Shown here: positions 5,909 through 24,000 of the stretch, piece by piece | Numbering within the stretch: position 1 is the first letter of the stretch | Layout of the letters: each line of letters begins with the position of its first letter | NCBI RefSeq assembly: GCF_002117935.1 | Contig: NZ_BDJE01000011.1 | Location: 8,425-32,424 of the forward strand | Direction: 5' to 3' | Source: Nocardioides sp. PD653-B2 | GTDB lineage: Bacteria > Actinomycetota > Actinomycetes > Propionibacteriales > Nocardioidaceae | DNA length: 24,000 nt | Notes under the pieces: model-generated | What the model was told of the DNA's origin: nothing | Database searches by the model: none | The model's input: only the letters and a program-made list of their open reading frames with translations | Made by a program: the position numbers and the translations under genes

Positions 5909-5960
5909 TGCATGCAACATATGCAGGCACGTTGCATGTTACGCACTTTGAGCGTAACCT
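5909..5960. promoter_or_regulatory. Operator-like TGCA-rich array in the divergent NIPSNAP/kdgK intergenic region, with a candidate kdgK promoter
   Basis: TGCATGCA palindrome at 5909-5916. 14-mer TGCAACATATGCAG at 5913-5926. TGCA tetramers start at 5913, 5922 and 5933. GCGTAACCT at 5952-5960. Candidate -35 TTGCAT (5932-5937), 17-nt spacer, -10 TAACCT (5955-5960). The 14-mer and the 9-mer recur at 8510-8532. Confidence 0.45.
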
Positions 5961-6019
5961 TCGGCTCGAAGAGGCGTCAAGGGCGCACGTCGGTCGGTCG
6001 TCGGCACAGGAGGAGAAGC

Positions 6020-6988: not shown

Positions 6989-7725
6989 GTCAGACGCTCG
7001 ACCGTGCCCTGCAGGTGCTGGAGTTCGTCGGTGAGCGGCCGCGCCGCATCGGCGACATCGCCACCCGCCTGGACGTGCACCACTCCACGGCACTGCGGTT
7101 CCTGCACACACTGCGCAAGCACGGCTTCGTGCAGGAGCTTCCCGACCACAGCTACCGGCTGGGACCCACGATGTTCCGGCTCGGCTACCAGGCGCTCGAA
7201 GGCATCGAGCTTCGATCGGTGGCGCGGCCGGCCATGGAGCGCCTCCGCGAGCTCACCGGCGAGACCGTCCACCTCGGCTCGCTCGAGGATGGCAGCGTGC
7301 TCTACGTCGAGAAGGTCGAGGCCAACCACCCGGTGCGGATGCACTCCAGGATCGGCGCCGTCGCGCGGCTGCACTGCACCGGCGTCGCCAAGGGGATCGT
7401 CGCGTTCCTGCCCCAGGCCGACCGCGACGAGCTGCTCGACGGCTACGAGCTGGTGCGGATGACCGACCACACGATCGTCGACCGAGTCGCGTTCGAGGAG
7501 GAGCTGGCGCTGAGCCGGGAGCGTGGCTACGCCCTCGACGCCGAGGAGAACGAGCCGGGCATCCACTGCATCTCGGCGCCGGTGTTCTCCGGCGAGGGGC
7601 GGGTCGTCGGCGCCTTCAGCGTGACCGCCCCGACCTCGCGCGTCGACCGTCAGACCCTGCTGGGCTTCGCCCCGGCCCTGGTCGAGGCGACCCGGGACAC
7701 CTCCCGCCAGCTGGGGTGGCAGTGA
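6985..7725 (+). CDS. IclR-family transcriptional regulator (KdgR-like by context)
   Basis: 246 aa. The N-terminal winged-HTH sequence is LDRALQVLEFVGERPRRIGDIATRLDVHHSTALRFLHTLRKHGFV. The C-terminal IclR effector domain contains LHCTGVAKGIVAF ... EENEPGIHCISAPVF. Confidence 0.9.
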   Translation: MSQTLDRALQVLEFVGERPRRIGDIATRLDVHHSTALRFLHTLRKHGFVQELPDHSYRLGPTMFRLGYQALEGIELRSVARPAMERLRELTGETVHLGSLEDGSVLYVEKVEANHPVRMHSRIGAVARLHCTGVAKGIVAFLPQADRDELLDGYELVRMTDHTIVDRVAFEEELALSRERGYALDAEENEPGIHCISAPVFSGEGRVVGAFSVTAPTSRVDRQTLLGFAPALVEATRDTSRQLGWQ

Positions 7726-8351
7726 GTACGTCGGTGCAGGCGCCCCTGCGCACGACCGCGATCCTGCGCGGCTTCGGGCCCGAGCGCTCCCGCGACCACG
7801 CCGAGGAGTGCTGGGCCGCAGGCATGGACCTCGTGGAGGTGCCGGTGCAGGGCGAGCCCGGTTGGGCCTCGCTGCAGGCGGTCGCCGAGATGGCGGGCGG
7901 GCGGCTCTTCGGGGCCGGGACCGTGCTCACGGTCGAGGACGCCCGGCGGGCGCTCGACCTGGGCGCGTCGGTGATCATCGCGCCCAACACGGACGCCGCG
8001 GTGATCGACGTGGCTGTGGCTGCCGGAGCGATCCCGATGCCCGGTGTGCTCACGCCCACCGACGTGGGCACGGCGGTCCGGCACGGGGTGCGCACGGTGA
8101 AGCTCTTCCCGGCCTCCGTGGTCGGTCCCGGCTGGATCCCGGCGCTGCGGGGCCCGTTCCCAGGCGTCGGCGTCGTGGCCGTCGGCGGGGTGAACCTCGG
8201 CAACGCCGCTGAGTACCTGCGCGCCGGCGCGGTCGGTGTCGGCTTCGGTGGCTCCGTCACGGACCTCCTGCGCTCCGCCGACCCGGCCGCCGTGGTCGAG
8301 GAGCTGCACGAGCTCGCCGACCTGAGCGCCAGCCGGCACCGCGCCAGCTGA
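7716..8351 (+). CDS. eda: 2-dehydro-3-deoxyphosphogluconate (KDPG) / 4-hydroxy-2-oxoglutarate aldolase
   Basis: 211 aa. It contains AILRG..., EVPVQGE, GAGTVLTVEDARRALDLGASVIIAPN, VKLFPAS (Schiff-base lysine context) and AVGGV. An alternative GTG start at 7722 would make a GTGA overlap with the iclR stop. Confidence 0.85.
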   Translation: MAVSTSVQAPLRTTAILRGFGPERSRDHAEECWAAGMDLVEVPVQGEPGWASLQAVAEMAGGRLFGAGTVLTVEDARRALDLGASVIIAPNTDAAVIDVAVAAGAIPMPGVLTPTDVGTAVRHGVRTVKLFPASVVGPGWIPALRGPFPGVGVVAVGGVNLGNAAEYLRAGAVGVGFGGSVTDLLRSADPAAVVEELHELADLSASRHRAS

Positions 8352-8561: not shown

Positions 8562-9314
8562 GTGAAGGTGCTCGTGTGTGTCACCCAGGCCCTGGAGGTC
8601 TCCTCCTACCTGGAGTTCACCCCGGACGGCACCGCCATCGACGCGGCGTTCGTCTCCGGCAGCCTCAACGAGGCCGACCAGAACGCCGTCGAGGAGGCGC
8701 TCGCGCTGACCGCCGACGACGGTGAGGTGGTCCTCGTCAGCGCCGGTGGCGACGAGGCGGAGGAGGCGCTGCGCGCCGGCCTCACGATGGGGGCGCACCG
8801 CGCCCTTCGCGTGGCCCTCTCGCCGGCCGAGCTGGCCGACAGCCGCACGGTGGCCGCCGCGCTCTCCCAGGCCGTGGCGGACGAGCAGCCCACTCTGGTG
8901 CTGACCGGCGTCCAGGCCTCCGACACCGGCGGGCAGTCGACCGGGCCGGCCCTCGCGGCCGCCGCGGACCTGCCCTGGGCGACCGTCGTCCGCTCGCTCG
9001 CCAGCGACGGCCGCACGCTGACCGCCCGGCGCGAGTTCGAAGGCGGTGTCTCGGAGCTGGTCCAGGTCGACCTGCCGGCTCTCGCCACGGTCCAGGTCGG
9101 CGCGAACCAGCCGCGCTACGGGACCTTCAAGGACAAGATGCGTGCCAAGAAGGCCGAGATCGCGGTCCTCACGCCCGTCGACCTGCCGACCCCGCGGGTG
9201 GTGCTCACCAGGATGAGCGCCAACCAGGCCGGTGGCCGGACCGTCCAGATGGTGCAGGGCGGACCCGCCGAGGTCGCCGCCCGCATCCTGAGCATCGTTC
9301 GTGAGGTGCAGTGA
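8562..9314 (+). CDS. etfB: Electron transfer flavoprotein, beta subunit
   Basis: 250 aa. MKVLVCVTQALEVSSYLEF... and LNEADQNAVEEAL are typical of the EtfB/FixA N-terminus. It is followed by etfA, whose start codon (GTG 9311 or ATG 9314) overlaps the etfB stop. Confidence 0.9.
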   Translation: MKVLVCVTQALEVSSYLEFTPDGTAIDAAFVSGSLNEADQNAVEEALALTADDGEVVLVSAGGDEAEEALRAGLTMGAHRALRVALSPAELADSRTVAAALSQAVADEQPTLVLTGVQASDTGGQSTGPALAAAADLPWATVVRSLASDGRTLTARREFEGGVSELVQVDLPALATVQVGANQPRYGTFKDKMRAKKAEIAVLTPVDLPTPRVVLTRMSANQAGGRTVQMVQGGPAEVAARILSIVREVQ

Positions 9315-10252
9315 TGACCCGCTTGCTCGTCGTCGCCGAGATCGTTGACGGCGCCGTCTCCCCTCTGACCGCGGAGGCCGTCTCGGCCGCCGCCTCGCTC
9401 GGCGGGGACGTGATCCTCGCCGTCGTCGGCCCCGATGCCGGTGCGCTCGCCGCCCAGGCCGCGCCGGCGGGCGTCACCGAGGTCGTCACCGTGACGGCGC
9501 CCGGCACCGACCGCGACCACGAGCAGATGCTGCACGCGGTCGCGGCGCTCGTCGCCGACGTCGCCCCGGAGGTCGTGGTCGCCGGCTTCACGATCCGCTC
9601 CACGGCGTGGGCCGCCGCTCTCGCCGAACGCCTCGACCTGGCGTTCGTGCCGGACGTCGTGTCGCTGACCGCGGCCGGCGGCGAGGTCACCGCGGAGCGC
9701 TCCATCTACGACGGCCGGGTCCGCGCCGAGTACGCCTTCCCGACGGGCCGTCCCGTCGTCGCCCTGGTCCGCGCAGGCTCCTGGCCGCCCGCCGAGCCGG
9801 CCGCCGCGGCCGCGACCCGGGCCCTCGAGGTCGATCTCCCTCCCTCGCGCGTCCGCGCAGGCGAGCTGACCCGGCCTTCCGGCGACGTGGACCTGACCGG
9901 GTCCGACGTCATCTTCGCGGTCGGTCGCGGTGTCGGCTCGGAGGAGAACATCGCGGCCTTCGCCGACATCGCGCGTCGCCTCGGCGCGGGCCTCGGCGCC
10001 TCGCGCCCGATCATCGACGCCGGCTGGCTGCCCGCCGTCCACCAGGTCGGCCAGACGGGCGTGACGGTGAAGCCCAAGGTCTACGTCGCGCTGGGTATCT
10101 CCGGCGCCCTGCACCACCTCGCCGGCATGCAGCACAGCAAGACGATCGTCGCGGTCAACACCAACGAGGACGCGCCCATCTTCGGGTACGCCGACGTGGG
10201 TGCGGTCGCGGACATCCACGAGGTCGCCGAGCAGCTGCAGGCGCTCCTCTAG
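9311..10252 (+). CDS. etfA: Electron transfer flavoprotein, alpha subunit
   Basis: 313 aa. The C-terminal FAD-binding signature is GASRPIIDAGWLPAVHQVGQTGVTVKPKVYVALGISGALHHLAGMQHSKTIVAVNTNEDAPIF. The start is GTG 9311 (GTGA overlap) or ATG 9314. Confidence 0.9.
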   Translation: MMTRLLVVAEIVDGAVSPLTAEAVSAAASLGGDVILAVVGPDAGALAAQAAPAGVTEVVTVTAPGTDRDHEQMLHAVAALVADVAPEVVVAGFTIRSTAWAAALAERLDLAFVPDVVSLTAAGGEVTAERSIYDGRVRAEYAFPTGRPVVALVRAGSWPPAEPAAAAATRALEVDLPPSRVRAGELTRPSGDVDLTGSDVIFAVGRGVGSEENIAAFADIARRLGAGLGASRPIIDAGWLPAVHQVGQTGVTVKPKVYVALGISGALHHLAGMQHSKTIVAVNTNEDAPIFGYADVGAVADIHEVAEQLQALL

Positions 10253-10290
10253 CACGACGACGGACCATCTGGTCGGGACAGGGAGAACTC

Positions 10291-11919
10291 GTGAGCACAG
10301 ACGTGGCGGACGTCCTCATCATCGGCGCGGGCGCGTCGGGCGGCGTGGCGGCGAAGCATCTCGCCGAGGCGGGCTTCAGCGTGGTGGTCCTCGAGCAGGG
10401 GGACTGGGTCAACCAGAGTGACCTGCCGGGGCTGCGACCGGAGTACGAGGTGCTGGGCGGCGGCCCGTGGCACCCGAACCCGAACGTGCGCCAGCGTCCC
10501 GAGGACTACCCGATCAACCTCGACGACTCCGCCGCCGTGATCGGCATGTTCAACGGCGTCGGCGGCAGCACCGTCCTCTACGCGAGCTGCTGGTGCCGCG
10601 CGAAGCCGTCGGACTTCCGGGTGCGCACCCTCGACGGGGTCGCCGACGACTGGCCGGTGAGCTACGAGGAGCTCGAGCCGTTCTACCGCCAGGTGGAGTA
10701 CGACCTCGGCATCTCCGGTCAGGCCGGCAACCCGGCGTACCCGCCGGGCTACGCCCCGCCGCTGCCCAGCCTGCCGATCAACATGGCCGGACGCGTGATG
10801 GCGCAGGGCATGAACAAGCTCGGCTGGCACTGGTGGCCCGGCTACAACTCGATCCCCTCCCAGGACCACCTCCACCAGAAGAAGTGCGAGCGGTACGGCG
10901 TCTGCATGTATGGCTGCCCTCAGGGGGCGAAGGGCTCGACCGACGTCGCGCTCTTCCCGGATGCCCTCGCCCATGGTGCGCGCCTGGAGACCCGCGCCCG
11001 GGTCGCGCGGATCAGCCTCGACGAGAACGGCCTCGCGAACGGGGCGGTCTACTTCCAAGACGGCGTGGAGAAGTTCCAGCCGGCCAAGCTGGTCCTGGTG
11101 GGCGCCAACGGCATCGGCACGCCGCGGCTGCTGCTGATGTCGGAGTCCGCAGGCCACCCCGACGGGCTCGCGAACAGCTCCGGACTCGTGGGCAAGCGCT
11201 TCATGACCCACCCGTTCGGCACCTCCGTGGGGCTCTACGAGGAGGACCTCGAGGACTGGGTGGGCCCCACCGGCGAGGCGATCGAGTCCATGCAGTTCTA
11301 CGAGACCGACCCCTCCCGCGGCTTCGTGCGCGGCAGCAAGTGGCACATCATCCCGTCCGCGGGCCGGCCGCTCGGCATGATCAACCGCTTCACGATGGGT
11401 GAGGGCGGCGTCGCCGACGAGCCCTTCTGGGGCGAGGCGTTCACCGAGCGGATGAAGGCGTCCGTGGGCCACCTGATCGAGTGGATGATCATGCCCGACG
11501 ACCTGCCCGAGGAGCACAACCGGATCACGCTCGACCACGAGAAGACCGACTCCGACGGACTGCCCGGCGCGAAGGTCGCCTACGTCACCGGCGAGAACAC
11601 CCGCAAGCTGGTCGACTGGAACCTCCAGCGCAGCCTGGAGGCACACGAGGCGGCCGGAGCCACGAAGGCCTGGATCACCAACCGCAACAACCCGTCCTGG
11701 CACAACATGGGCACCGCGCGGATGGGCGACGACCCGGAGACCTCGGTGGTGAACAGGTGGGGTCAGGCCCACGACGTCCCCAACCTGTACGTCATCGACG
11801 GCAGCCAGTTCGTCACCGCCACGGGCGTCAACCCGACGGCGACGATCTGTGCGCTGGCGAAGCGGACGGCGGCATACCTGGTGGAGAACCGGCGCGAGCA
11901 GAAGGTGTCGACGGCATGA
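10291..11919 (+). CDS. GMC-family FAD-dependent oxidoreductase (sugar/polyol dehydrogenase large subunit)
   Basis: I trimmed ORF 9607-11919 to GTG 10291, preceded by GGGAGA at 10281-10286. The N-terminal dinucleotide fold is DVLIIGAGASGGVAAKHLAEAGFSVVVLEQG. The C-terminal GMC domain is WHNMGTARMGDDPETSVVNRWGQAHDVPNLYVIDGSQFVTATGVNPTATICALAKR. Confidence 0.85.
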   Translation: MSTDVADVLIIGAGASGGVAAKHLAEAGFSVVVLEQGDWVNQSDLPGLRPEYEVLGGGPWHPNPNVRQRPEDYPINLDDSAAVIGMFNGVGGSTVLYASCWCRAKPSDFRVRTLDGVADDWPVSYEELEPFYRQVEYDLGISGQAGNPAYPPGYAPPLPSLPINMAGRVMAQGMNKLGWHWWPGYNSIPSQDHLHQKKCERYGVCMYGCPQGAKGSTDVALFPDALAHGARLETRARVARISLDENGLANGAVYFQDGVEKFQPAKLVLVGANGIGTPRLLLMSESAGHPDGLANSSGLVGKRFMTHPFGTSVGLYEEDLEDWVGPTGEAIESMQFYETDPSRGFVRGSKWHIIPSAGRPLGMINRFTMGEGGVADEPFWGEAFTERMKASVGHLIEWMIMPDDLPEEHNRITLDHEKTDSDGLPGAKVAYVTGENTRKLVDWNLQRSLEAHEAAGATKAWITNRNNPSWHNMGTARMGDDPETSVVNRWGQAHDVPNLYVIDGSQFVTATGVNPTATICALAKRTAAYLVENRREQKVSTA

Positions 11920-12377
11920 GCATCACGGACGTGACGATCCAGCCGGCCTCGGCGCCGGTGCTGAGCGAGGAGCAGCGGGCACGGCTGGCGGTGCTGGCCG
12001 ATCTGTTGATCTCCGGTGGCGCGGGGCTGCCCTCGGCCAGTGGGGCGGAGGTGCCGACGCAGTGGATCGACCGGGTCCTGGCGGTGCGCGCCGACCTGGA
12101 CGCCACGGTGCGGGCGGTGCTGGAGCTGGAGGGTGATCCGGGCGAGGTGCTGGCCGGCCTGCGGGCGGATTCCCCGGAGGTGTTCGGGGCGTTCGCGATG
12201 GCGGTCGCCGGTGCCTACCTGATCAACCCGCGGGTGCGTCGCGGGCTGGGCTACCCCGGGCCGGCGCCGATGAAGAACCCGGCGCTGCCCGACGAGGCCG
12301 AGGCCTACCTCGAGGGCGGGATCCTCGACGTGGTCGTCGCCCGCGGACCGATCTACCGCCCCACGCCCCAGGGCTGA
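11916..12377 (+). CDS. Gluconate 2-dehydrogenase subunit-3-family small subunit (partner of the GMC dehydrogenase), without a Tat signal
   Basis: I trimmed ORF 11481-12377 to ATG 11916 (ATGA overlap with the GMC stop), giving 153 aa. LSEEQRARLAVLADLLISGGAGLPSASGAEVPTQWIDRVL matches the usual L-x-x-E-x-x-x-L-x-A-x-x-D-x-L-I-P...A...GV...FID opening of this family. There is no RRxFL twin-arginine motif. Confidence 0.55.
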   Translation: MSITDVTIQPASAPVLSEEQRARLAVLADLLISGGAGLPSASGAEVPTQWIDRVLAVRADLDATVRAVLELEGDPGEVLAGLRADSPEVFGAFAMAVAGAYLINPRVRRGLGYPGPAPMKNPALPDEAEAYLEGGILDVVVARGPIYRPTPQG

Positions 12378-13360: not shown

Positions 13361-13380
13361 ACGTCATAACAAGATGACGT
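13361..13380. promoter_or_regulatory. Perfect inverted repeat ACGTCAT-N6-ATGACGT in the AT-rich php / aroE-like divergent promoter region (candidate operator)
   Basis: ACGTCAT at 13361-13367, spacer AACAAG, ATGACGT at 13374-13380. It overlaps the 8-bp palindrome TGACGTCA at 13375-13382. It is embedded in the only markedly AT-rich stretch of this locus (about 13350-13382). Confidence 0.5.
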
Positions 13381-13397
13381 CAGGCGAGGAGGTCCCC

Positions 13398-14330
13398 GTG
13401 CGTCACCTCTACTTTGTCGGTGTCTCGACCACCAGGTCGAGCATCGTCACGATCTTCCCCGCCTGGGCGAAGGTGCTGGGCCTGGATGCCGAGCTCCGCG
13501 GCCTCGACGTGCCGCTGCACGCCCCGCCGGAGCAGCTGCGCGCCGCGGTCGACACCGTCCGTACCGACCCCGACATCGCCGGCGCGCTGGTCACGACGCA
13601 CAAGGCCGGCGTGTACGACGTCGCCGGCACCTGGTTCGACGAGCTCGACGACGCCGCCAAGCTCTGCCACGAGGTCTCGTGCATCGCGGTCCGCTCCGGC
13701 CGGCTGCTCGGCTGGGCGAAGGACCCGATCACCTCGCGGCAGGCCTACACCCAGCTGCTCGGGCCCGAGCCGTGGCGAGACGGCGTGGCTGACGTCGTCT
13801 GTCTCGGCGCCGGGGGCGCGGGTCTCGCGCTGCTCGTCGCCGTCCTGGGCGAGACCCACCAGCCGCGTCGACTGCTGCTCACCGATCGCGACGCCGGCCG
13901 GCTCGAGCTGGCCCGCGAGGTCGCGGCGCGACTGCCCGGGCGGGTCGAGCTGGAGCTGCACCACACCACGGCCGCGGAGCACAGCGACGAGGTCGTCGCC
14001 TCGGCCGCTCCCGGATCGCTCGTCGTGAACGCCACGGGCATGGGCAAGGACTCGCCGGGCTCGCCGGTGAGCGACGCCGTGGTCTTCCCGCGGGGCGCGG
14101 TCGCGTGGGACATGAACTACCGCGGCGAGCTCGACTTCCTCCGGCAGGCGCGCGCCCAGGAGTGGGAGCGCGGTCTCACCGTCGCCGACGGGTGGCGGTA
14201 CTTCCTGCACGGGTGGACCGAGGTCATCTCCGAGGTCTTCGACGTGCCCCTGGACGCCACCCTCTTCGCCCAGCTGGCCGAGGTCGCCGCCACGGCCACC
14301 GGGCGCAACGTCGCGGGGAACGCCACGTGA
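13398..14330 (+). CDS. Shikimate/quinate dehydrogenase-family (AroE-like) NAD(P)-dependent oxidoreductase, divergent member
   Basis: The ORF track starts at ATG 13374, but GTG 13398 has a strong SD (GAGGAGG 13386-13392, 5-nt spacing). It contains ALVTTHKAG (compare AroE NVTxPxK), LLGWAKDPITS (compare G-x-NTD-x-x-G), the Rossmann motif VVCLGAGGAGLALL, and LVVNATGMG. Confidence 0.6.
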   Translation: MRHLYFVGVSTTRSSIVTIFPAWAKVLGLDAELRGLDVPLHAPPEQLRAAVDTVRTDPDIAGALVTTHKAGVYDVAGTWFDELDDAAKLCHEVSCIAVRSGRLLGWAKDPITSRQAYTQLLGPEPWRDGVADVVCLGAGGAGLALLVAVLGETHQPRRLLLTDRDAGRLELAREVAARLPGRVELELHHTTAAEHSDEVVASAAPGSLVVNATGMGKDSPGSPVSDAVVFPRGAVAWDMNYRGELDFLRQARAQEWERGLTVADGWRYFLHGWTEVISEVFDVPLDATLFAQLAEVAATATGRNVAGNAT

Positions 14331-14359: not shown

Positions 14360-15175
14360 TCAGATCGTGAACGGCGAGACCAGGGCTCCGGACGAACGCT
14401 TGTCACGGACGACGTCCATCTCGACGCGCATCCGGTCGGCCCGGTGCCAGGCCCGGAAGCACTCGATCGCGCCGCCGTTGGCGTCGCGGCCGACCGACTC
14501 GACGTAGAGCAGCGGTTCGCCCTGGCCGACGTTGAGGAGCTTGGTCATCATGCCCGCGGCAGCCGTCGCCTCGATGGAGCGGTGGCCGCTCTCGATGCGC
14601 AGCCCGAAGGAGTCCTCGAGGATCCGGTAGAGCGACCCCTGCGAGAGGTCCGCGGCGCGCAGGTGCTCGAGCAGCTGCGGGTCGTCGCGGTTCACGTAGG
14701 ACTTGGTGAAGGCGACGACCTCGTCGTTGACCGCGCGCTGCCGGACGACCTCGATGCAGTGCGCGCCGGCGTCGGCGCCCATCAGCTCCCGGATCCGGCC
14801 GGCGACCTCGATCCGGTCGATCGAGAGCACCGAGCTGGAGACGGAGTGACCGTGGCTGGTCATGTCCTCGAAGAAGCCGACCGTGCTCTCCATGAACTGC
14901 TCGGAGAGCTTCGGCTTGGCCACGAAGGTGCCCTTGCCGCGCATCCGCTGCAGGACGCCTTCGGTCACCAGCTCGCCGACCGCCTGGCGTACGACGGTCC
15001 GCGACACGCCGTACCGCGCGCACATCTCGGTCTCCGACGGCAACAGGTGGCCGGGCTCCAGTCCGTTCTGCGCGATCTCTCGCAGGATCAGCTGCTTGAG
15101 CTGCTCGTAATAGGGCAGTCGAGCATCCCGCTCGATCCCGCCGTGTTCGGCCACGACGCGGACCGTATCACCCAT
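14360..15175 (-). CDS. GntR-family transcriptional regulator, HutC subfamily (UTRA effector domain)
   Basis: I trimmed ORF 14360-15238 to ATG 15175. The HTH region is LPYYEQLKQLILREIAQNGLEPGHLLPSETEMCARYGVSRTVVRQAVGELVTEGVLQRMRGKGTFVA. The C-terminal region of about 150 aa is UTRA-like. It is divergent from the DUF2620 operon. An alternative GTG start lies at 15238. Confidence 0.85.
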   Translation of the reverse strand: MGDTVRVVAEHGGIERDARLPYYEQLKQLILREIAQNGLEPGHLLPSETEMCARYGVSRTVVRQAVGELVTEGVLQRMRGKGTFVAKPKLSEQFMESTVGFFEDMTSHGHSVSSSVLSIDRIEVAGRIRELMGADAGAHCIEVVRQRAVNDEVVAFTKSYVNRDDPQLLEHLRAADLSQGSLYRILEDSFGLRIESGHRSIEATAAAGMMTKLLNVGQGEPLLYVESVGRDANGGAIECFRAWHRADRMRVEMDVVRDKRSSGALVSPFTI

Positions 15176-15275
15176 GCTGAGGTGATGACAGGATGATGAA
15201 TCCCACACCGGGCCGTGGTCCCCGCGCCGACTTGGCACCCCTCACCACCACGTCACCAGCACGAAAGGCCCCCCG

Positions 15276-15683
15276 ATGAACGAGACCCGCTCGATCCGTG
15301 TCGTCGCCGCAGGAGTGGACGCACCGACCATGGCCAGGATCGCCCAGGACGCCGGCGGCGGCCGGGTCGAGGCCGCCGCCCTCGGCGACATGCAGGGCGC
15401 GCGACTGGTGAAGAAGGGGCAGGCCGACTACTACATCGGCACCTGCTGGTCCGGCGGCGGCGGCGCGCTCGCGGCCGCGACCGCGATCCTCGGCGCCAAG
15501 CAGGTCGGCATCGTCGGGACACCCGGGATGGTCGTCACCGAGGAGCGGGTCCGGACCATGGTGGGCGAGGGCCGGATCGCGTTCGGCTTCGCCTACGAGC
15601 AGACCACCACCGCGATCCCGTTGATCATCAAGGAGATCCTGGCCCACCGCGACGCGCAGGAGGGCCGCGCAGGTGACCGGTGA
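15276..15683 (+). CDS. DUF2620-family protein (YhfU-like)
   Basis: 135 aa. It has the core GQADYYIGTCWSGGGGALAAATAILG. I assign it from my recollection of the E. coli YhfU family and from its position next to PRD, mutase, racemase-fold and php homologues. GAAAGG lies upstream of ATG 15276. Confidence 0.55.
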   Translation: MNETRSIRVVAAGVDAPTMARIAQDAGGGRVEAAALGDMQGARLVKKGQADYYIGTCWSGGGGALAAATAILGAKQVGIVGTPGMVVTEERVRTMVGEGRIAFGFAYEQTTTAIPLIIKEILAHRDAQEGRAGDR

Positions 15684-16095
15684 CCTGACGGCCGACGCGG
15701 CCGCCCACGCCCAGATCACCGAGGAGTTCGCCGACCGGCTCGAGATGCTCGAGGAGTCCGGTCAGGTGAGCAAGCTCGCCCGCCGGCTCACCGAGCTCGC
15801 GCTCGCCGACCTCGCCGTCAGCCTCGACCTCCGGTTCACCGAGGAGAACTCCGCCCAGTTCGTGACCCACCTGGCGATCGCGCTGACCCGGATCAACCGC
15901 GGCGACCCCCCGATCGAGCTCTCGGCGGTCGCCGAGGAGGAGATCGCCGAGCGCACCCGCGAACGCGACGCCGTCGCTCGGGTGATGCGCGACTGCGCCC
16001 CGGTGCTCGAGCGCACGGTCCCCGATCCCGAGATCAGCTACATGACCGTGCACCTGTGCAGCATCGTCGACCTCCAGTCCGAGCAGGGCGGGTGA
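15673..16095 (+). CDS. Stand-alone PRD-domain protein (YhfY-like)
   Basis: 140 aa and all-helical in character. Two PRD-type histidine contexts are present: QFVTHLAIALTRI and SYMTVHLCSIV. The GTG start overlaps the DUF2620 3' end by 11 nt. The stop overlaps the next start (GTGA 16092-16095). Confidence 0.65.
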   Translation: MTGDLTADAAAHAQITEEFADRLEMLEESGQVSKLARRLTELALADLAVSLDLRFTEENSAQFVTHLAIALTRINRGDPPIELSAVAEEEIAERTRERDAVARVMRDCAPVLERTVPDPEISYMTVHLCSIVDLQSEQGG

Positions 16096-17294
16096 CCGGC
16101 CGCGCGGTGGTGGTCGTCCTCGACGGCTTCGGTGTCGGGGCGACCCCCGACGTCGCCGACTCCGACGCGGGCTGGCACACCCTGGAGCACGTCGCGGGGG
16201 ACGCACCCCTGCAGCTGCCGACCCTCGCGTCCCTCGGGCTGCACCGGCTCGCGCCTCGCGCGGTCGAGGAGCAGCAGCTGCGCGGCGCCTACGGCCGGCT
16301 CGCGCCGGTGCACCCCGGCGCCGACACCTACCTCGGACACCAGGAGCTCATGGGCGGCGGGTTGTCGCGCGTCGAGTTGAAGCTCATGGAGGACGTCGGC
16401 GAGACCGTCCGCGACGCCCTGGTGGCGGCCGGGCACCGGGTCGAGCCGCTGGTCGAAGGCCAGTCGATGCTGCTCGTCGACGGCGTCGCGGTCGTGCACG
16501 ACAACATCGAGGCCCGGGCCCGCCTGAACATCAACGTGACCGCCACGCTCGACGACATCGGCTTCGACGAGCTCAGCGAGATCGGCTTCGTCGTACGCCG
16601 TGCCGTGAACGTCTCCCGCGTCATCGTGGTCGGCAGCCGCGGCTACGACGTCGACGACATCCGGGCGCACATCGTGGACCGCGGCGAGGGCCAGGTCGGT
16701 GTCGACACCCCCGGCCTCGGGGTCTACACCGAGGACTACCAGGTGCGCCACCTCGGCCTGGAGTTCCCGGTCGAGCGGCAGCTCCCGACGCGGGTGATCG
16801 AGGCCGGCGGCGACGTGGTCCTGCTGGGCAAGGCGGCCGACGTGGTGCGCTGCACCGGCGCGGTGCGCGAGAACCTGGTGCCGACCGCGGAGGTGCTCGA
16901 CGCCGCCGTGCGCCACCTCACCTCCATGGAGCACGGGCTGATCGTGGCCAACGTCCAGGAGACCGATCTCGCCGGACACGAGCAGGACCGCGACCGCTAC
17001 CGGCAGGTGCTCCGGCTCGTCGACGCCAAGCTGCCGCAGCTGCTCGAGCAGCTGGGTCCCGACGACGTGCTGTTCGTCACCGCCGACCACGGCAACGACC
17101 CCACCTCGGGCAGCAGCCGCCACACCCGCGAGTACGTCCCGCTGCTCGCCTACGGTGCGGCGTTCCAACCCGTCGACCTCGGCATCCGGTCCACCCTCGC
17201 CGACGTCGCCGCGACCGTGGCCGACCTCCAGCAGCTCGCGGAGCTGGAGTCCGGAGAGTCATTCCTGAAGGAGATCTCGTGTTCATCGACGTGA
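16092..17294 (+). CDS. Phosphopentomutase-like metalloenzyme (alkaline-phosphatase superfamily; YhfW-like phosphosugar mutase)
   Basis: I trimmed ORF 16056-17294 to GTG 16092. The N-terminus AVVVVLDGFGVGATPDVADSDAGWHTLEHVAG...LQLPTLASLGL is collinear with DeoB (VLDSFGIGA...DT.GH...LNLPNL..LGL). ETDLAGHEQD and VTADHGNDPT are metal/phospho-site motifs. Confidence 0.8.
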   Translation: MTGRAVVVVLDGFGVGATPDVADSDAGWHTLEHVAGDAPLQLPTLASLGLHRLAPRAVEEQQLRGAYGRLAPVHPGADTYLGHQELMGGGLSRVELKLMEDVGETVRDALVAAGHRVEPLVEGQSMLLVDGVAVVHDNIEARARLNINVTATLDDIGFDELSEIGFVVRRAVNVSRVIVVGSRGYDVDDIRAHIVDRGEGQVGVDTPGLGVYTEDYQVRHLGLEFPVERQLPTRVIEAGGDVVLLGKAADVVRCTGAVRENLVPTAEVLDAAVRHLTSMEHGLIVANVQETDLAGHEQDRDRYRQVLRLVDAKLPQLLEQLGPDDVLFVTADHGNDPTSGSSRHTREYVPLLAYGAAFQPVDLGIRSTLADVAATVADLQQLAELESGESFLKEISCSST

Positions 17295-18493
17295 CCCGTC
17301 GCCGCAACCCCGCCCTGATCGACGCGGCGGTCGAGCTGCACCAGGCCGGGCGCATCCCGTCCAACTGCTACGTGGTCGACCTCGACACGGTGGCGCGCAA
17401 CGCCGCCGTGGTGGCGCAGGCCGCGAAGTCCCACGGCCTGACGGCCTACCAGATGACCAAGCAGTTCGGTCGCAACCCGGTGGTGGCCCAGGCCATCGCG
17501 GACGCCGGCATCGACCGCGTCGTGGCGGTCGACTTCGAGGAGGCCCGGCTGTTGCACGCCCACGGCCTGAAGATGGGCCATGTCGGCCACCTGGTCCAGG
17601 TGCCCGAGCACGAGCTCGGGCTCGCCGCCGACATGGAGCCCGACTTCGTCACGGTCTTCGGCTACGACCAGGCCGAGCGGATCAGCAAGGCGATGCAGGA
17701 GCGCGGCCGGGTCCAGGACCTGACGCTGCGGATCTCCGAGCCGGGCGACACCTTCTACCCCGGCCAGCGCGGGGGAGTGCCGCTCGCCGACGCGGTCGAC
17801 GTCGCGCGCCGGATCGACGCCCTGCCCGGCGTCCGCATGCGCGGCGTCACGAGCTTCCCGGTCGTGCTGTGGGACGAGACGGCCGGAGCCTTCGGCGCGA
17901 CGCAGAACCTGGAGACCCTGCGGGCCGCGTCCGAGGCGATCAACGCCGCCGGCATCGACGCGCCCGTGCGCAACACCCCGAGCGCCTGCTGCTCGGCGAC
18001 GTTCGGGATCAAGGCCGCGGCCGGTGCGACCCACGTGGAGCCGGGCAGCTGCCTCACCGGGCAGACTCCGCTGCATGCCGTGAGCGACCAGCCGGAGCTG
18101 CCGGCCATGATCTACGTCTCGGAGATCTCGCACACGACCGCGGACGCGGCGTACTGCATCGCCGGCGGGCTCTACCCACGGTCGAAGGCGCGCACCGCGC
18201 TGGTCTACGACGAGGTGGGCGCCGAGCCGGTCACCGCCGCGGTCGAGCTCGACCCGGCCGAGGCGATCGACTACTACGGCACCCTGCGTCTCGACGATCC
18301 CCGGCGCCTGCGGATCGGCAGCACCGTCGTGTACGCCTTCCGTGCGCAGGTGTTCGTCAGCAAGTGTTTCGTCGCCGTCGTCAGCGGGATCGGGTCCCAG
18401 CCGGTCGTCGAAGGCATCTTCACCAGCACTGGATTCCGTCTCGGGGAGGACCTCCTCCCGGTCGGCGGACTTGACGGAAGGACCGCGCCGTGA
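17279..18493 (+). CDS. Alanine-racemase-fold (fold-type III) PLP-dependent enzyme, YhfX-like
   Basis: 404 aa. It opens MFIDVTRRRNPALIDAAVELHQAGRIPSNCYVVDLDTV and has the lysine context AYQMTKQFGRNP. SD AAGGAG lies at 17268-17273. It overlaps the mutase 3' end by 16 nt. Confidence 0.7.
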   Translation: MFIDVTRRRNPALIDAAVELHQAGRIPSNCYVVDLDTVARNAAVVAQAAKSHGLTAYQMTKQFGRNPVVAQAIADAGIDRVVAVDFEEARLLHAHGLKMGHVGHLVQVPEHELGLAADMEPDFVTVFGYDQAERISKAMQERGRVQDLTLRISEPGDTFYPGQRGGVPLADAVDVARRIDALPGVRMRGVTSFPVVLWDETAGAFGATQNLETLRAASEAINAAGIDAPVRNTPSACCSATFGIKAAAGATHVEPGSCLTGQTPLHAVSDQPELPAMIYVSEISHTTADAAYCIAGGLYPRSKARTALVYDEVGAEPVTAAVELDPAEAIDYYGTLRLDDPRRLRIGSTVVYAFRAQVFVSKCFVAVVSGIGSQPVVEGIFTSTGFRLGEDLLPVGGLDGRTAP

Positions 18494-18768
18494 CTGCCAC
18501 GCGCACCGTGACCATCGCCGACCCCCAGGGCCTGCACGCCCGCCCGGCAGCGGACTTCGTGACCGCGTCGCGCGACTTCGAATGCGACCTGGAGATCCAG
18601 GTCGGGGACAAGTCGGGCAACTGCAAGAGCCTGCTGTCGGTGCTCAAGCTCGGTATCGCGCACGGCACGCTCGTCACCCTCCAGGCGACGGGCGCCGACG
18701 AGGAACGCGCCGTCACCGAGCTGGCCGAGCTGCTCGGCCACCAGGTCCAGGGCACGTCGTCGCCGTGA
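18490..18768 (+). CDS. ptsH: Phosphocarrier protein HPr
   Basis: 92 aa. The active-site His-15 context is TIADPQGLHARPAADFV. A Ser-46-like context, GNCKSLLSVLKLGI, is also present. There are GTGA overlaps at both ends (18490-18493 and 18765-18768). Confidence 0.9.
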   Translation: MTATRTVTIADPQGLHARPAADFVTASRDFECDLEIQVGDKSGNCKSLLSVLKLGIAHGTLVTLQATGADEERAVTELAELLGHQVQGTSSP

Positions 18769-20441
18769 TACTCCAGGGCATCCCGGCCTCGGGCGGTTGC
18801 GCACTCGGCCCGGTCGTCATGCTGGAGCCCGCGGGCGCCGACGTGGACGTCACCGCCAGGAGCACGCGCCCGGTCCCGGAGTCGCTGGACCGGCTCACCG
18901 CGGCGGTGGCGGCGAGCCGCGACGACATCGTCGCGATCGCCGCGACGGCCCGGGAGCGGATCGGTGCGGAGAACTCCGCGATCGTCGAGGCCCAGCTGCT
19001 GGTGCTCGACGACCCCGAGTGGCTCGAACCCGTGGTGGCGGCGATCCGTGGCGGCGCCACCCCTGAGGGCGCCGTGTGGGCGGTCAGCCAGGAGGTGGCC
19101 GGGCTGCTGGCAGCGCTCGACGACCCGTACCTCGCCGAGCGGTCGGCCGACGTCCTCGACGTCGGGCAGCGCGTGGTGGGGCACCTGACCAACCGGCGCC
19201 GGGCTCCCGTGCTCGCCGGCCTCGAGGGCGACGTCATCATCGGCGCCTACGAGCTCACCCCGACCGACACCCTCGCCCTCGACCTGGAGGTCGTGCGCGG
19301 GATCGTCACCGAGGTGGGGTCCCGCACCGCGCACGCCGCGATCATCGCCCGCCAGCTCGGCATCCCCGCCGTGGTGGGGGCGAGCGGGCTGCTCGACGCC
19401 GTGTGCTCGGGCGATGTCGTGCTCGTCGACGGGGACCAGGGCACCTGCACGCTCGACCCCGGCGACGCCGAGGTGGCCCGGGCGCGCTCGGTGGCCGCGG
19501 CGCGCGCCAGCCAGGCCGTGATCGTCGAGCGGGTCGCCACCAGCGACGGCATCGAGGTCGTGGTGCTGGCCAACGCCGGGAGCATCCTCGACGTCGAGCG
19601 CGCGGTCGGCTGGGGCGCGGACGGGATCGGGCTGTTCCGCACCGAGTTCTTGTTCATGCAGTCCCAGGCGCCCCCCGACGAGGAGGAGCAGGCGGCATAC
19701 TACGCCGCGGTGGCCCAGGCCGCCCAGGGCCGACCGGTGACGTTCCGGACCCTCGACATCGGGGGCGACAAGCCGGTGCCGGGGCTGCACGTGGAGGCCG
19801 AGGCCAACCCGTTCCTCGGGGTCCGGGGCGTGCGGCTCACCCTCGCCGACCACGACCTGTTCGCGGCCCAGCTGCGGGCGCTCGCGCGCACCGCGGCGGC
19901 GTACCCCGAGATCAGCGTGATGGTGCCGATGGTCTCCGGGCTCGAGGAGCTCGACGAGGTCCGCGCACTGCTGGCCGAGTGTGCCGGCGAGACCGCGTTC
20001 CGGTTCGGCACGATGATCGAGGTGCCCAGCGCGGCGGTGCTCGCCGCCGAGGTCGCGGACGAGGTGGACTTCCTCAGCGTCGGCACCAACGACCTGACGG
20101 CCTACGTCCTGGCGGCCGACCGGGGCAACACCCGGCTGGACTACCTCTACGACGAGTTCCACCCCGCGGTCCTGCGCACCCTCCGCCTGATCCGCGCCGG
20201 CGCGGGTGCCACGCCGGTGAGCATCTGCGGCGAGCTCGCCGGCGACCCGCGCGCGCTCGCTCTGCTGGTGGGGCTCGGCTACCACCGGTTGAGCGTGTCC
20301 GGGCCGCTGGTGCCGGTGGTCAAGGAGCGGGTCCGCGAGCTCGAGGCCGCCGGCACGGCCGACGGGGTGGCGGCGGTGCTGTCCGCACGGCGTCGCGCGG
20401 ACGTCTCCGCGGCGCTGGACCTGCTCACGCCCCGGGGCTGA
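18765..20441 (+). CDS. ptsI: Phosphoenolpyruvate-protein phosphotransferase (PTS Enzyme I)
   Basis: I trimmed ORF 18342-20441 to GTG 18765 ((M)ILQGIPASGGCALGPVV, the canonical EI N-terminus), giving 558 aa. The phospho-His motif is GSRTAHAAIIARQLGIPAVVG. The PEP-binding domain contains GLFRTEFLF, RTLDIGGDK, MIEVPSA and VGTNDLTAY. Confidence 0.95.
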   Translation: MILQGIPASGGCALGPVVMLEPAGADVDVTARSTRPVPESLDRLTAAVAASRDDIVAIAATARERIGAENSAIVEAQLLVLDDPEWLEPVVAAIRGGATPEGAVWAVSQEVAGLLAALDDPYLAERSADVLDVGQRVVGHLTNRRRAPVLAGLEGDVIIGAYELTPTDTLALDLEVVRGIVTEVGSRTAHAAIIARQLGIPAVVGASGLLDAVCSGDVVLVDGDQGTCTLDPGDAEVARARSVAAARASQAVIVERVATSDGIEVVVLANAGSILDVERAVGWGADGIGLFRTEFLFMQSQAPPDEEEQAAYYAAVAQAAQGRPVTFRTLDIGGDKPVPGLHVEAEANPFLGVRGVRLTLADHDLFAAQLRALARTAAAYPEISVMVPMVSGLEELDEVRALLAECAGETAFRFGTMIEVPSAAVLAAEVADEVDFLSVGTNDLTAYVLAADRGNTRLDYLYDEFHPAVLRTLRLIRAGAGATPVSICGELAGDPRALALLVGLGYHRLSVSGPLVPVVKERVRELEAAGTADGVAAVLSARRRADVSAALDLLTPRG

Positions 20442-21366: not shown

Positions 21367-22311
21367 TCAGGTGGCGGAGCCGACCTCGAAGAGCAGAGCA
21401 GCGCCCTCGAGCCCACGGCGGAGCTCCTCGACGGCGAGGACGCCGGCGCGCTCGACGGCCTCGACCGTGGACGCGCCGCAGTGCGGCGTGAGGATCACGT
21501 TCGGGAGGTCGCGCAGCGGACTGGCGGCGTCCAGCGGCTCCTCCTCGAAGCTGTCGAGGGCGGCCGCGTGCAGGGGACCCTGGGCCAGCGCGACGGCGAG
21601 TGCGTCCTCGTCGACGATGCCGCCGCGGGCCGTGTTGACCAGGATGCTCGACGGCCGCATCCGGCCGAGCACCTCGGCGCCGAACAGGTGCCGGGTGGTC
21701 TCGGTCAGCGGGGCATGGATCGAGATGACGTCCGAGCGTGCGACCAGCTCGTCGAAGGCGACCATCGAGACGTCGGTCTGCACGGCCACCGGGTCGTGCC
21801 CGATGACCTCCATGCCGAGCGCCCTCGCGCGGACCGCCACCTCCTGGCCGATCCGGCCGATGCCCACCAGGCCGAGGGTCCGGCCGGCGAGCTCGAGCGC
21901 GGTCGGGCGCGACCACGAGCCAGCGCGCACCGACCGGTCGAGGCTCGGGATGCCGCGGGCCGCGGCCAGCATCAGGCCGACGGTGAGCTCGGCGACCGAC
22001 GTGGTGGTGGCGCCGAGCGTCCGGGTCACCCGGATGCCCTCGGTACGCGCGGCGTCGAGGTCGACGTTGTCGACCCCGATCCCGAAGCGCACCAGGACCC
22101 GGAGGCCGGTGCCCACGAGCGCCTGCGACGACGCCTCGTCGACGCCGAGGATGGCGCCGTCGCACCCGTCGAGCAGCTCCCGCAGCTCGGCCGCGGTCAG
22201 CGGCCGCTCCTGGGTCGGGTAGCGCACGTCGTAGCCGGCGTCGTGGAGCAGCTCCTGGTGCCGACCGGGGGTCTGGCGGAAGCCCCGCGGGGTCACCGCG
22301 ACGGTGGTCAC
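21367..22311 (-). CDS. D-isomer-specific 2-hydroxyacid dehydrogenase (phosphoglycerate dehydrogenase-like)
   Basis: 314 aa. The NAD motif is LAGRTLGLVGIGRIGQEVAVRARALGMEVIGHDP. NTARGGIVDE and the catalytic tail LTPHCGAST are present. The GTG start overlaps the cupin isomerase stop (GTGA 22308-22311). Confidence 0.85.
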   Translation of the reverse strand: MTTVAVTPRGFRQTPGRHQELLHDAGYDVRYPTQERPLTAAELRELLDGCDGAILGVDEASSQALVGTGLRVLVRFGIGVDNVDLDAARTEGIRVTRTLGATTTSVAELTVGLMLAAARGIPSLDRSVRAGSWSRPTALELAGRTLGLVGIGRIGQEVAVRARALGMEVIGHDPVAVQTDVSMVAFDELVARSDVISIHAPLTETTRHLFGAEVLGRMRPSSILVNTARGGIVDEDALAVALAQGPLHAAALDSFEEEPLDAASPLRDLPNVILTPHCGASTVEAVERAGVLAVEELRRGLEGAALLFEVGSAT

Positions 22312-22898
22312 GCGCGGCGGTAACGCGGGTTCGCGACGATCTCCGGGCCGCGCTCGCCCTCGACCACGATGACGGGGAAGCCCTGCTCGGCGATGGTGGC
22401 GTAGTCGTAGCCCGCGTCGCCGATGTAGACCGCGTAGAACACCAGCGGCTCGTCGCCGGTGTTCACCGAGCGGTGGGCCCAGTGGCCGGGCACGTAGTTC
22501 ACGATGCCCGGGCGCATCTCCTTGGTCTCGGTGGTGCCGTCCTCGAGCGCCATCACCAGCAGGCCCTGGCCGGACAGCGTCAGGTAGATCTCGGCGCGGT
22601 CGCGGGTGGCGTGGAAGTGACCCTTGGTCATGAAGTACTCGTCGCCGACCTTGCCCGGCTGGAGCACCGTGGTCGAGGAGAGGAGGTTGTTGTTCGTCGC
22701 CGGGACCCGGATCTCGTGCACGCTGTACATGTCGCCGTCGGCCGGGGTCGCCGTCTCGACGTCGCTGAGGAAGTAGCCCGCCAGATCGGCGAGACCGCGC
22801 CGCAGGACGACCGGGTCGGGCGTCAGGTCACCGGACTCGAAGTCGATGTACACCGTGAAGGGCACCAGGGCGCCCTCGGGCAGGTCGGTCGTGGTCAT
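22308..22898 (-). CDS. Cupin-type sugar-phosphate isomerase (archaeal-type glucose-6-phosphate isomerase family)
   Basis: 196 aa. The cupin metal motif FMTKGHFHATRDRAEIYLTLSG ... NYVPGHWAHRSVN matches the T-x-G-H-[FY]-H...E-x-Y...H pattern of cPGI. A strong SD (AGGAGGG) lies 6 nt upstream of ATG 22898. Confidence 0.7.
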   Translation of the reverse strand: MTTTDLPEGALVPFTVYIDFESGDLTPDPVVLRRGLADLAGYFLSDVETATPADGDMYSVHEIRVPATNNNLLSSTTVLQPGKVGDEYFMTKGHFHATRDRAEIYLTLSGQGLLVMALEDGTTETKEMRPGIVNYVPGHWAHRSVNTGDEPLVFYAVYIGDAGYDYATIAEQGFPVIVVEGERGPEIVANPRYRRA

Positions 22899-22921
22899 GG
22901 GTCACCCTCCTGGGTGGTCGG

Positions 22922-23995
22922 TCAGGCGGACGCGGCGGCGGAGCGGAACTCCGGGTCGGCCAGGGCGGCACGCAGGATGCGGAGCACGGTCTCGGCTCCG
23001 CCACGCATCGGGTTGACGCGTACGGCGTACCGCTCCAGGCCGGGAGCGGACTTCAGGAACGTGCTGGTCAGGTAGGTGAAGAGCGGCAGGAACTCGAACT
23101 GCGCCTCCTCGCCCACCGACTGGCTGGGTGACCCGTTGCGCCAGGCCGAGCGCAGGAACTCCTCGGCCACGGGACGGTCGAAGAGCAAAACGGCGCACCG
23201 GATCCCCGGCTGCGCGGCGTAGGCGCCGGCGAGGAACGGGTAGTCCTCGCTGCCGACGCCTTCGGTCACCGCCTGGGCGACGTCCAGCACCGTCTGGTTC
23301 TGGACTGCCAGCGCGACCGGCGCGAACACCAGTGCGCGCAGGGCTGCCATCGCGTGCGGACCCTGGATCTGGCAGCCGGCCGAGGACAGGTCGCGGCGGA
23401 TCTGCCCGACCGAATCGCGGTCGGCGAGCACCGCACCGATCGGGTGGGGGGAGAGCAGCTTGAACAGCGACAGCGCCGAGGCGTCTGCCCCCATCTGGAC
23501 CCCGATCCGCGGCGAGCGCATCACTGCGTAGTTGTCGTCGACGAGGATGCGTACGTCGTTCCCGCACACCGACCGCACCAGGTCGATGACCCGGGCGACG
23601 TCGTGGCTGTCCCCCAGCCGCTGCGGGACGTGCTGGAGGTAGACCGATGCGGGGCGGTGCTCGCGCAGGTAGGCCTCGAGGCCCGCGGCGTCGTCGAAGC
23701 TGGAGTAGTCGACGGTGAGTCCCATGTGCCGCATCGCCGGCAGCGTGGTCTTGTAGGGGTGCGCCTCGTGCACGACGATCCGCGAGCCGGGCTCGACCAG
23801 ACCGTTGAGCATCGCGCGGATGGACCCGGTCCCGGCGCCGTGGATCAGCACGGCGTCCTCGGCGTCGAAGAACCGCGCGAGGACCTCCTCGACCCGCGCG
23901 GTCGCCCGGGGCCGTCCGCCGCCGCCGAACCCGACCGTGGCGAGCTCGCGGACCTGGCCGTAGTCCTCGACGAAGACCACGTCGGACCCCATCAC
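22922..23995 (-). CDS. Fold-type I PLP-dependent enzyme, YhfS-like (aminotransferase / C-S or C-N lyase-like)
   Basis: 357 aa and complete in the window. It contains VLIHGAGTGSIRAMLNGLVEPGSRIVVHEAHPYKTTLPAMRHMGL, VDDNYAVM, the lysine context LSLFKLLSPHPIG, and C-terminal VRVNPMRGGAETVLRIL. It is collinear with my recollection of E. coli YhfS. It is the first gene of a minus-strand three-gene operon. Confidence 0.65.
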   Translation of the reverse strand: MMGSDVVFVEDYGQVRELATVGFGGGGRPRATARVEEVLARFFDAEDAVLIHGAGTGSIRAMLNGLVEPGSRIVVHEAHPYKTTLPAMRHMGLTVDYSSFDDAAGLEAYLREHRPASVYLQHVPQRLGDSHDVARVIDLVRSVCGNDVRILVDDNYAVMRSPRIGVQMGADASALSLFKLLSPHPIGAVLADRDSVGQIRRDLSSAGCQIQGPHAMAALRALVFAPVALAVQNQTVLDVAQAVTEGVGSEDYPFLAGAYAAQPGIRCAVLLFDRPVAEEFLRSAWRNGSPSQSVGEEAQFEFLPLFTYLTSTFLKSAPGLERYAVRVNPMRGGAETVLRILRAALADPEFRSAAASA

Positions 23996-24000
23996 CTGCT

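Follow-up and report, generated by a model that had tools for sequence, protein, structure and literature searches.

We analysed a 24,000-nucleotide stretch of Nocardioides sp. PD653-B2 DNA (contig NZ_BDJE01000011.1, positions 8,425 to 32,424 of the forward strand), referred to here as the window. In it, genes for the two general components of the phosphotransferase system (PTS), HPr (ptsH) and Enzyme I (EI; ptsI), form the end of an operon whose other genes belong to the set named yhf in Escherichia coli. This association of ptsHI with yhf genes is real and conserved. Since the link is also found in distant phyla, the yhf pathway most likely runs on a phosphorelay driven by phosphoenolpyruvate (PEP), through a small protein made up of a PRD domain. 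The initial annotation of this DNA had proposed a private phosphorelay ending on the PRD protein, on a neighboring DUF2620 protein, or on both. The relay and the PRD protein as its acceptor remain plausible, whereas the premise of a locus with no kinase was wrong, that of no permease was an effect of the window edge, and DUF2620 does not resemble a known EIIB. The E. coli yhf genes are still putative or uncharacterised in the 2026 RefSeq record, and the open-access papers and preprints whose full text we searched neither describe what these genes do nor connect them to the PTS. The conserved and repeated attachment of HPr and EI gives these genes a first lead that is concrete and can be tested. 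On this basis, the yhf module may be read as a client of PEP-dependent phosphotransfer, with His66 and His127 of the PRD protein and Cys57 of the DUF2620 protein as candidate residues.

Because the window is 72% G+C, raw lists of its open reading frames (ORFs) are noisy. Our gene set was built from a third-position GC (GC3) frame plot together with Pfam and contains 26 genes. Six of these form the operon:

15276..15683, plus strand: DUF2620/YhfU-like protein, 135 amino acids (Pfam PF10941, 1.6e-29)
15673..16095, plus strand: stand-alone PRD protein, YhfY-like, 140 amino acids (Pfam PRD PF00874, 1.5e-09)
16092..17294, plus strand: YhfW-type metalloenzyme of the phosphopentomutase family, 400 amino acids (Metalloenzyme, 3.6e-32; NF009049)
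17279..18493, plus strand: YhfX-type fold-III pyridoxal phosphate (PLP) protein, 404 amino acids (Ala_racemase_N and YhfX-like_C)
18490..18768, plus strand: HPr, 92 amino acids, with its active-site His in GLHARPA (PF00381, 7.5e-26; TIGR01003)
18765..20441, plus strand: Enzyme I, 558 amino acids (PEP-utilisers_N, PEP-utilizers, and PEP-utilizers_C; TIGR01417)

The six co-directional genes (15276-20441) are chained by overlaps, and all five junctions are present as first annotated: 11 nt between DUF2620 and PRD (15673-15683), GTGA between PRD and YhfW (16092-16095), 16 nt between YhfW and YhfX (17279-17294), GTGA between YhfX and HPr (18490-18493), and GTGA between HPr and EI (18765-18768). The GC3 frame plot backs all six reading frames, and independent gene calls on 100%-identical public contigs (L001; contigs and loci are cited by L number) use the same start codons. 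An exact-sequence look-up of EI matched no record, and the contigs were reached through three other proteins (DUF2620, the cupin, and the thioesterase). Nothing was detected in scans for promoters, terminators, Rfam families, or tRNAs. Profile searches upheld the family calls for all six proteins; the YhfW-type protein, for instance, scored 431.6 bits against the NCBIfam model NF009049, "phosphopentomutase" (cut-off, 254).

The last two genes had been called as PTS general components, and their domains, cut-offs, and motifs all agree with this. HPr scored 90.4 bits against PF00381 (cut-off, 23) and 82.6 bits against TIGR01003 (cut-off, 47.9), and EI scored 470.9 bits against TIGR01417 (cut-off, 341.7). 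EI contains the motifs GSRTAHAAIIAR and GTNDLTAY and has a complete domain make-up of N-terminal HPr-binding, mobile His, and PEP-binding parts in three Pfam domains. The parts of the PTS front end are thus present and intact. In Pfam and NCBIfam searches, EI lacked a GAF domain and was not fused to EIIA or HPr. Its closest non-orthologous relatives are actinobacterial DhaM-type fusions of EIIA-Man, HPr, and EI (43 to 47% identity). As annotated, the 24 kb hold no Enzyme II: Pfam recognised no EIIA, EIIB, or EIIC among the 26 window genes, and there was none in ~9 kb to the left or right of the window on contigs of the same or nearly the same strain (the rest of the genome was outside the search). 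Dak1, Dak2, and PF03610 (EIIA-Man) were also absent from the window and these flanks.

To place the operon among its relatives, we surveyed one genome per species by DUF2620 alignment and kept the best 80 of 268 relatives with their flanks. Loci were annotated by tblastn, jackhmmer, and all-against-all clustering. The 80 loci comprised 16 from Actinomycetota and Chloroflexota, of which 15 could be evaluated (L016 is incomplete), and 64 from other phyla. HPr was present in 17 of the 80 loci, in 16 of them directly after YhfW or YhfX. In a Chloroflexota metagenome-assembled genome (MAG; L022), HPr instead follows PRD, and the order PRD-HPr-EI is kept within a rearranged cluster. Among the evaluable Actinomycetota and Chloroflexota loci, 13 of 15 had HPr and 12 of 15 had EI. 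The adjacency of ptsHI is thus not unique to this strain, and the coupling is conserved across genera: the order DUF2620-PRD-YhfW-YhfX-HPr-EI occurs in Nocardioides, Blastococcus, Longivirga, Nanopelagicales MAGs, Microbispora, Sphaerisporangium, and Arthrobacter. Across the actinobacterial loci, EI identity to the window protein drops to 50% with the gene order unchanged. Over the syntenic genes, proteins of a Nocardioides MAG (L007) are 94 to 99% identical to those of the window. One contig labelled as a Bifidobacterium breve MAG (L014) has the gene order of the freshwater Actinomycetota/Nanopelagicales loci L012 and L015 and near-identical similarity to the window proteins, and is probably mis-binned.

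Streptomyces sp. NPDC093250 (L092) carries a compact version of the cluster: a phosphotriesterase (PTE)-family gene, a shikimate dehydrogenase-like gene, GntR, and DUF2620-PRD-YhfW-YhfX-HPr-EI, followed after EI by aldolase-aminotransferase-YhfS-cupin-dehydrogenase-SIS, with YhfT and a binding protein further on. This compact cluster has an aldolase and no kinase. As Streptomyces has its housekeeping crr-ptsI and ptsH at separate loci (PMC4398421), the pair in the cluster is probably an additional copy. An IS110-family transposase (L092, 1-293) lies ~3 kb from the cluster, which hints that the cluster may be mobile as a whole.

Outside Actinomycetota and Chloroflexota (64 loci), the usual arrangement is YhfZ, PRD, DUF2620, YhfT, often an amidase-like gene, PTE, YhfS, YhfX, and YhfW. 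HPr follows YhfW in four of these loci, and HPr plus EI do so in two, from Petrotoga (L049) and Treponema (L033). Because the EIs of these two are only 35 to 41% identical to the actinobacterial yhf-linked EIs (which share 46 to 72% identity among themselves), and because the Petrotoga EI is nearer to a Firmicutes EI (50%), the comparison implies at least two or three independent recruitments of HPr-EI to yhf clusters. This repeated attachment is the best argument we have for a dependence of the module on PTS phosphotransfer. No Enzyme II family with at least two members was found among the 121 ORFs inserted in or flanking the 64 non-actinobacterial loci.

The PRD protein has what such a relay would need at its receiving end. 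Thr65-His66, Arg73, and Glu120 are invariant in 69 of 69 YhfY-like homologues, and His127 is kept in 64 of them (93%); E. coli YhfY has an Asn at this second histidine. The conserved residues are the standard PRD phospho-histidine signature. The window protein scored 38.5 bits against PF00874 (cut-off, 23), with both phosphorylatable histidines present. PRD domains are phosphorylated on conserved histidines by HPr and EIIB, and every characterised PRD that we know of is a phosphorylation-controlled switch. Since the canonical phospho-acceptor histidines are kept, the PRD protein is a credible candidate for taking the phosphoryl group from HPr~P via His66/His127, which agrees with the acceptor role first suggested for it.

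We therefore favor a model in which the ptsH-ptsI pair would be a dedicated PTS front end of the yhf-type set rather than a housekeeping pair located there by chance. PEP would phosphorylate EI, EI would pass the phosphoryl group to HPr, and HPr~P would modify the conserved histidines of the stand-alone PRD protein. Because PRD is translationally coupled to DUF2620, the signal would be passed within the DUF2620/PRD pair, and the PRD protein would act as a phosphorylation-controlled switch on the pathway. We are fairly confident that EI and HPr functionally serve the yhf module, and we lean slightly toward the PRD protein as the direct acceptor of HPr~P. The full regulatory reading, with a PEP->EI->HPr->PRD relay dedicated to the cluster and a PRD switch whose output we infer, is tentative. 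If the relay only regulates, the YhfY-like proteins would form a new class of stand-alone PRD switch.

Several observations weigh against this model. In Nocardioides zhouii (L011), the cluster has HPr and no EI, and two Nocardioides MAGs (L020 and L021) have neither, so a yhf cluster can persist without an HPr/EI pair of its own. EI and HPr are the last genes of a catabolic operon and would be co-expressed with its enzymes, a placement that fits a catalytic donor better than a purely sensory role. Typing of the domain as PRD1 or PRD2, meant to predict HPr or EIIB as the donor, gave conflicting results, as the GlcT model aligns to PRD2 and E. coli BglG aligns through PRD1 (E 2e-6). Finally, Pfam and NCBIfam searches found no RNA-binding (CAT) or DNA-binding output domain on the 140-amino-acid protein.

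In L011, HPr (13215-13594) aligns over 72 of 92 residues, and a convergent dehydrogenase gene comes directly next; this looks like a recent loss of EI. A kinase that substitutes for HPr-EI in L020 and L021 was ruled out, as only a KDPG aldolase and a His_Phos_1 gene are found there. A gene of this histidine-phosphatase superfamily thus lies beside both clusters (10501-11163 in L020; 13653-14363 in L021), and one also occurs upstream of the Petrotoga cluster (L049, 2886-3551).

We next compared the surroundings of the operon with the E. coli cluster yhfZYXW-php-yhfUTS (b3376-b3383). The window encodes six of its eight families, with YhfT just outside, and the families of the E. coli gene set thus co-occur in the window cluster. 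Identities to the E. coli proteins are 41% for YhfS, 39% for YhfW, 38% for YhfX, 34% for Php, and 33% for YhfU (the DUF2620 protein); YhfY is matched via the PRD family. The E. coli cluster has no ptsHI, whereas in the window cluster HPr-EI is appended, a GntR/UTRA regulator takes the place of YhfZ, and YhfT is displaced by ~20 kb. Also unlike in E. coli, the window is the middle of a ~40-kb super-locus that holds seven of the eight yhf families along with an aminotransferase, an SIS protein, a cupin, an electron transfer flavoprotein (ETF), a GMC oxidoreductase, a KDG-type kinase with an aldolase, and an ABC transporter. The other parts of the super-locus in the window are as follows:

5882..8351, plus strand: PfkB kinase, IclR regulator, and KDPG/KDPGal aldolase, a trio that belongs to the conserved super-locus
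8562..12377, plus strand: ETF beta and alpha, GMC oxidoreductase, and its 153-amino-acid partner, in a slot held by YhfT in L020 and L021
12406..13359, minus strand: PTE-family hydrolase, Php/YhfV-like (PF02126, 3.7e-61)
13374..14330, plus strand: conserved 318-amino-acid protein, distantly shikimate dehydrogenase-like (no Pfam match at E <= 0.01)
14360..15238, minus strand: GntR/UTRA regulator (GntR and UTRA domains), divergent from the operon and in the same place in all actinobacterial loci
21367..24000, minus strand: convergent operon of the next three genes
21367-22311, minus strand: 2-hydroxyacid dehydrogenase
22308-22898, minus strand: cupin glucose-6-phosphate isomerase (GPI)
22922 to 133 bp past the window end, minus strand: YhfS-like PLP enzyme

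The PfkB protein (5882-6988) is most like KDG/KDGal kinases, so the view that the locus lacks an ATP-dependent sugar kinase was wrong: one is encoded inside the window. The PfkB-IclR-aldolase trio is syntenic with the cluster in L008, L009, L011, and L013. The absence of a permease is true of the 24 kb, with no membrane protein among the 26 window genes, and fails just beyond them. On the right (L004, 100% identical to the window end), a class-III aminotransferase gene lies upstream of the YhfS-like gene and is followed by a divergent SIS protein, a two-domain sugar ABC ATPase, and a permease, the last two ~2.8 to 5.3 kb past the window end. On the left (L090, 100% identical; L089, 97% identical), an enolase-superfamily gene and Ldh_2 come first, followed by a second GMC oxidoreductase with its 153-amino-acid partner, the membrane protein YhfT (466 amino acids), an SDR, and a periplasmic sugar-binding protein; in the 97%-identical strain (L089), YhfT and the sugar-binding protein lie ~4 to 7.5 kb past the window end. 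The lack of a permease is therefore a window-edge effect. Nocardioides aquiterrae shares this layout; its YhfT gene likewise lies upstream, 20 kb from DUF2620. The ABC transporter was rejected as a replacement for YhfT, as both co-occur in L017, L018, L022, and this super-locus itself.

The DUF2620 protein was the second acceptor suggested at first, a role that its predicted structure weakens. Cys57 is invariant in 122 of 122 sequences (motif YY[IL]G[TA]C..GGGGALA). In the AlphaFold2 model (pLDDT 91.3), strand 3 ends with this Cys, and a Gly-rich loop and a helix come next. In a Foldseek search of the PDB, RpiB took hits 1 to 7 (E 1.5e-4 to 4e-3; TM 0.55 to 0.69), among them 5ifz, 3k7s, 1o1x, and 1nn4 (E 1.5e-4 to 1e-3). 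No PTS EIIB appeared in the top 50 matches, and hhalign gave no alignment to GatB or UlaB. DUF2620 as an EIIB fold was accordingly rejected in favor of RpiB, and an EIIB-like role is kept as a possible function. The protein is predicted to have an RpiB-like fold. RpiB, of the RpiB/LacAB family, is its best structural match, and the invariant Cys occupies the strand-loop-helix position that Cys66 has in RpiB. The hhalign alignment of Cys57 with this catalytic Cys66 covers the Cys segment only and is weak (E 0.035; probability, 1.4%). Beyond the Cys, the catalytic set of E. coli RpiB comprises His/Asn, Thr, and a phosphate-binding Arg. Because no His, Arg, or Thr is invariant across the DUF2620 sequences, the family would not be a standard RpiB. 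Also unlike RpiB/LacAB, it has no match to Pfam LacAB_rpiB, and in most genomes a membrane protein is encoded next to it: YhfT lies directly 3' of DUF2620 in 60 of the 64 non-actinobacterial loci, and PRD lies directly 5' in 38 of 64. The YhfT model (pLDDT 90.5) had a best Foldseek match of E 0.03 and TM 0.12, a profile search of the PDB gave 0 hits, and hhalign gave no alignment to UlaA. YhfT was thus rejected as an EIIC, matching nothing solved in sequence or structure. Two loci, from a Bacillota MAG and a Negativicutes MAG (L028 and L036), each carry two YhfT paralogues.

The main alternative to a regulatory relay, possible but on balance unlikely, is that the relay ends on the substrate, with EI and HPr donating the phosphoryl group that makes a phosphorylated amino-sugar intermediate. 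The PRD protein (His) would then be an EIIA-like carrier and DUF2620 (Cys57) an EIIB-like carrier, both non-canonical. They would act together with YhfT, which would be a new kind of permease for the PTS, or else in the cytoplasm on a substrate imported by the ABC transporter, much as Dha kinase does. That EI and HPr close a catabolic operon agrees with this, as does the kinship of EI with the DhaM-type fusions. Phosphomutases, SIS proteins like NagB-II/GlmS-C, KDPG aldolases, and NagB act on phosphorylated substrates, and the clusters contain a YhfW-type phosphomutase, such an SIS protein, and a KDPG aldolase, with NagB beside seven non-actinobacterial loci. No sugar-kinase family recurs among the 121 ORFs in or flanking the 64 non-actinobacterial clusters, and the compact Streptomyces cluster pairs an aldolase with no kinase. 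The PRD-DUF2620-YhfT adjacency resembles an EIIA-B-C gene order, and the invariant Cys57 stands just before a Gly-rich loop at the N terminus of a helix. On the other hand, DUF2620 resembles RpiB and no EIIB, YhfT resembles no solved EIIC or other transporter, and this genome has YhfT ~20 kb from DUF2620 and also encodes an ABC importer and a PfkB kinase. Nor is any PRD known to hand phosphate on to a sugar.

In its boldest form, this alternative would make PRD, DUF2620, and YhfT a new, structurally unrelated type of Enzyme II or a PTS-fed cytoplasmic phosphorylation module, with the relay PEP->EI->HPr->PRD(His)->DUF2620(Cys)->amino-sugar substrate. We regard this form as rather unlikely. If true, it would explain the kinase-less yhf clusters across phyla and why lineages of three phyla carry their own HPr/EI, and a relay that phosphorylates the substrate would reveal a new PTS component family with folds unlike those of known EIIB or EIIC.

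An ordinary general PTS pair that serves conventional EII permeases elsewhere in the genome, with the yhf cluster as its mere location or as one client among others, seems improbable. The domains and motifs of EI and HPr are indeed canonical and exceed generic PTS cut-offs, and the clusters of L020, L021, and L011 do without a full pair of their own. Such a pair would nevertheless be hard to reconcile with the translational coupling to YhfX, with synteny across Actinomycetota families at 50% EI identity, with the separate attachments in Petrotoga and Treponema, and with a Streptomyces cluster that has the pair, near an IS110 element, though the genus has crr-ptsI and ptsH elsewhere. Least probable of all, DUF2620 could be a cytoplasmic RpiB-like sugar-phosphate isomerase outside any relay, with HPr acting on another protein such as YhfW, whose enzyme family uses a phospho-enzyme intermediate; the RpiB matches (E about 1e-4 and TM 0.6 to 0.69 at the top) and the alignment of Cys57 with Cys66 speak for it, but that alignment is weak, the other catalytic and phosphate-binding residues have no invariant counterparts, and the near-obligate adjacency to YhfT would be unusual for a soluble isomerase.

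The PEP->EI->HPr->PRD model shares features with several known systems. Like DhaKLM and the actinobacterial EIIA-Man-HPr-EI fusions, it has a PTS front end in the operon of one cytoplasmic pathway and no membrane EIIC. The cluster differs in having no DhaK, DhaL, or EIIA-Man-like parts, with PRD and DUF2620 as candidate acceptors instead, and the analogy to DhaKLM drawn in the initial annotation holds only as a concept. As in the BglG/LicT antiterminators and the MtlR/LevR activators, the PRD has the His...R and E...H signature (and the hhalign match to the BglG PRD noted above); unlike these regulators, the YhfY-like proteins are stand-alone PRDs of 120 to 140 amino acids with no RNA- or DNA-binding output domain. 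The nitrogen PTS (EI-Ntr, NPr, and EIIA-Ntr) likewise has an EI/HPr-type relay without a permease, for control and not transport. The window EI differs from it in lacking the N-terminal GAF domain, there is no EIIA-Ntr, and the pair is located inside a catabolic operon.

A number of smaller observations concern the substrate and the neighboring genes. The flanks of the 64 non-actinobacterial loci are enriched for genes of secreted beta-lactamase-family proteins (8), NagB (7), and SIS proteins (6), and an amidase-like gene of 345 amino acids lies inside 41 of the 64 clusters; together, these genes point to an amide-linked amino-sugar substrate. The E. coli K-12 yhf cluster (L087, 3499910-3512344) directly adjoins the fructoselysine operon frlABCDR. 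The GntR/UTRA regulator of the window is 27% identical to FrlR; for the SIS and PfkB proteins of the actinobacterial loci, similarity to FrlB and FrlD is only marginal. The 318-amino-acid protein (13374-14330), whose similarity to shikimate dehydrogenase is sub-threshold, lies between PTE and GntR in every actinobacterial locus.

The ETF beta and alpha genes (8562-10252) are directly upstream of the GMC oxidoreductase gene and are kept with the cluster in L008, L009, L011, L013, L020, and L021, which suggests an oxidative step feeding ETF. The GMC oxidoreductase and its 153-amino-acid partner (10249-12377) are duplicated; the second copy (L089, 6876-8934; ~81% DNA identity) adjoins YhfT, ~1.8 kb left of the window. 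Gene calls on the identical contig L090 split the single long ORF at 1551-2846 into two genes, for a cyclase (308 amino acids) and a MaoC dehydratase (142 amino acids), which lie in a minus-strand block with a thioesterase, an AMP-binding enzyme, and an aldo-keto reductase. The gap that separates EI from the convergent operon is variable and in the window is occupied by a mycothiol-S-transferase/DinB-family gene (20508-21038). This gene is missing from the gap in L009 and L010 and displaced in L007.

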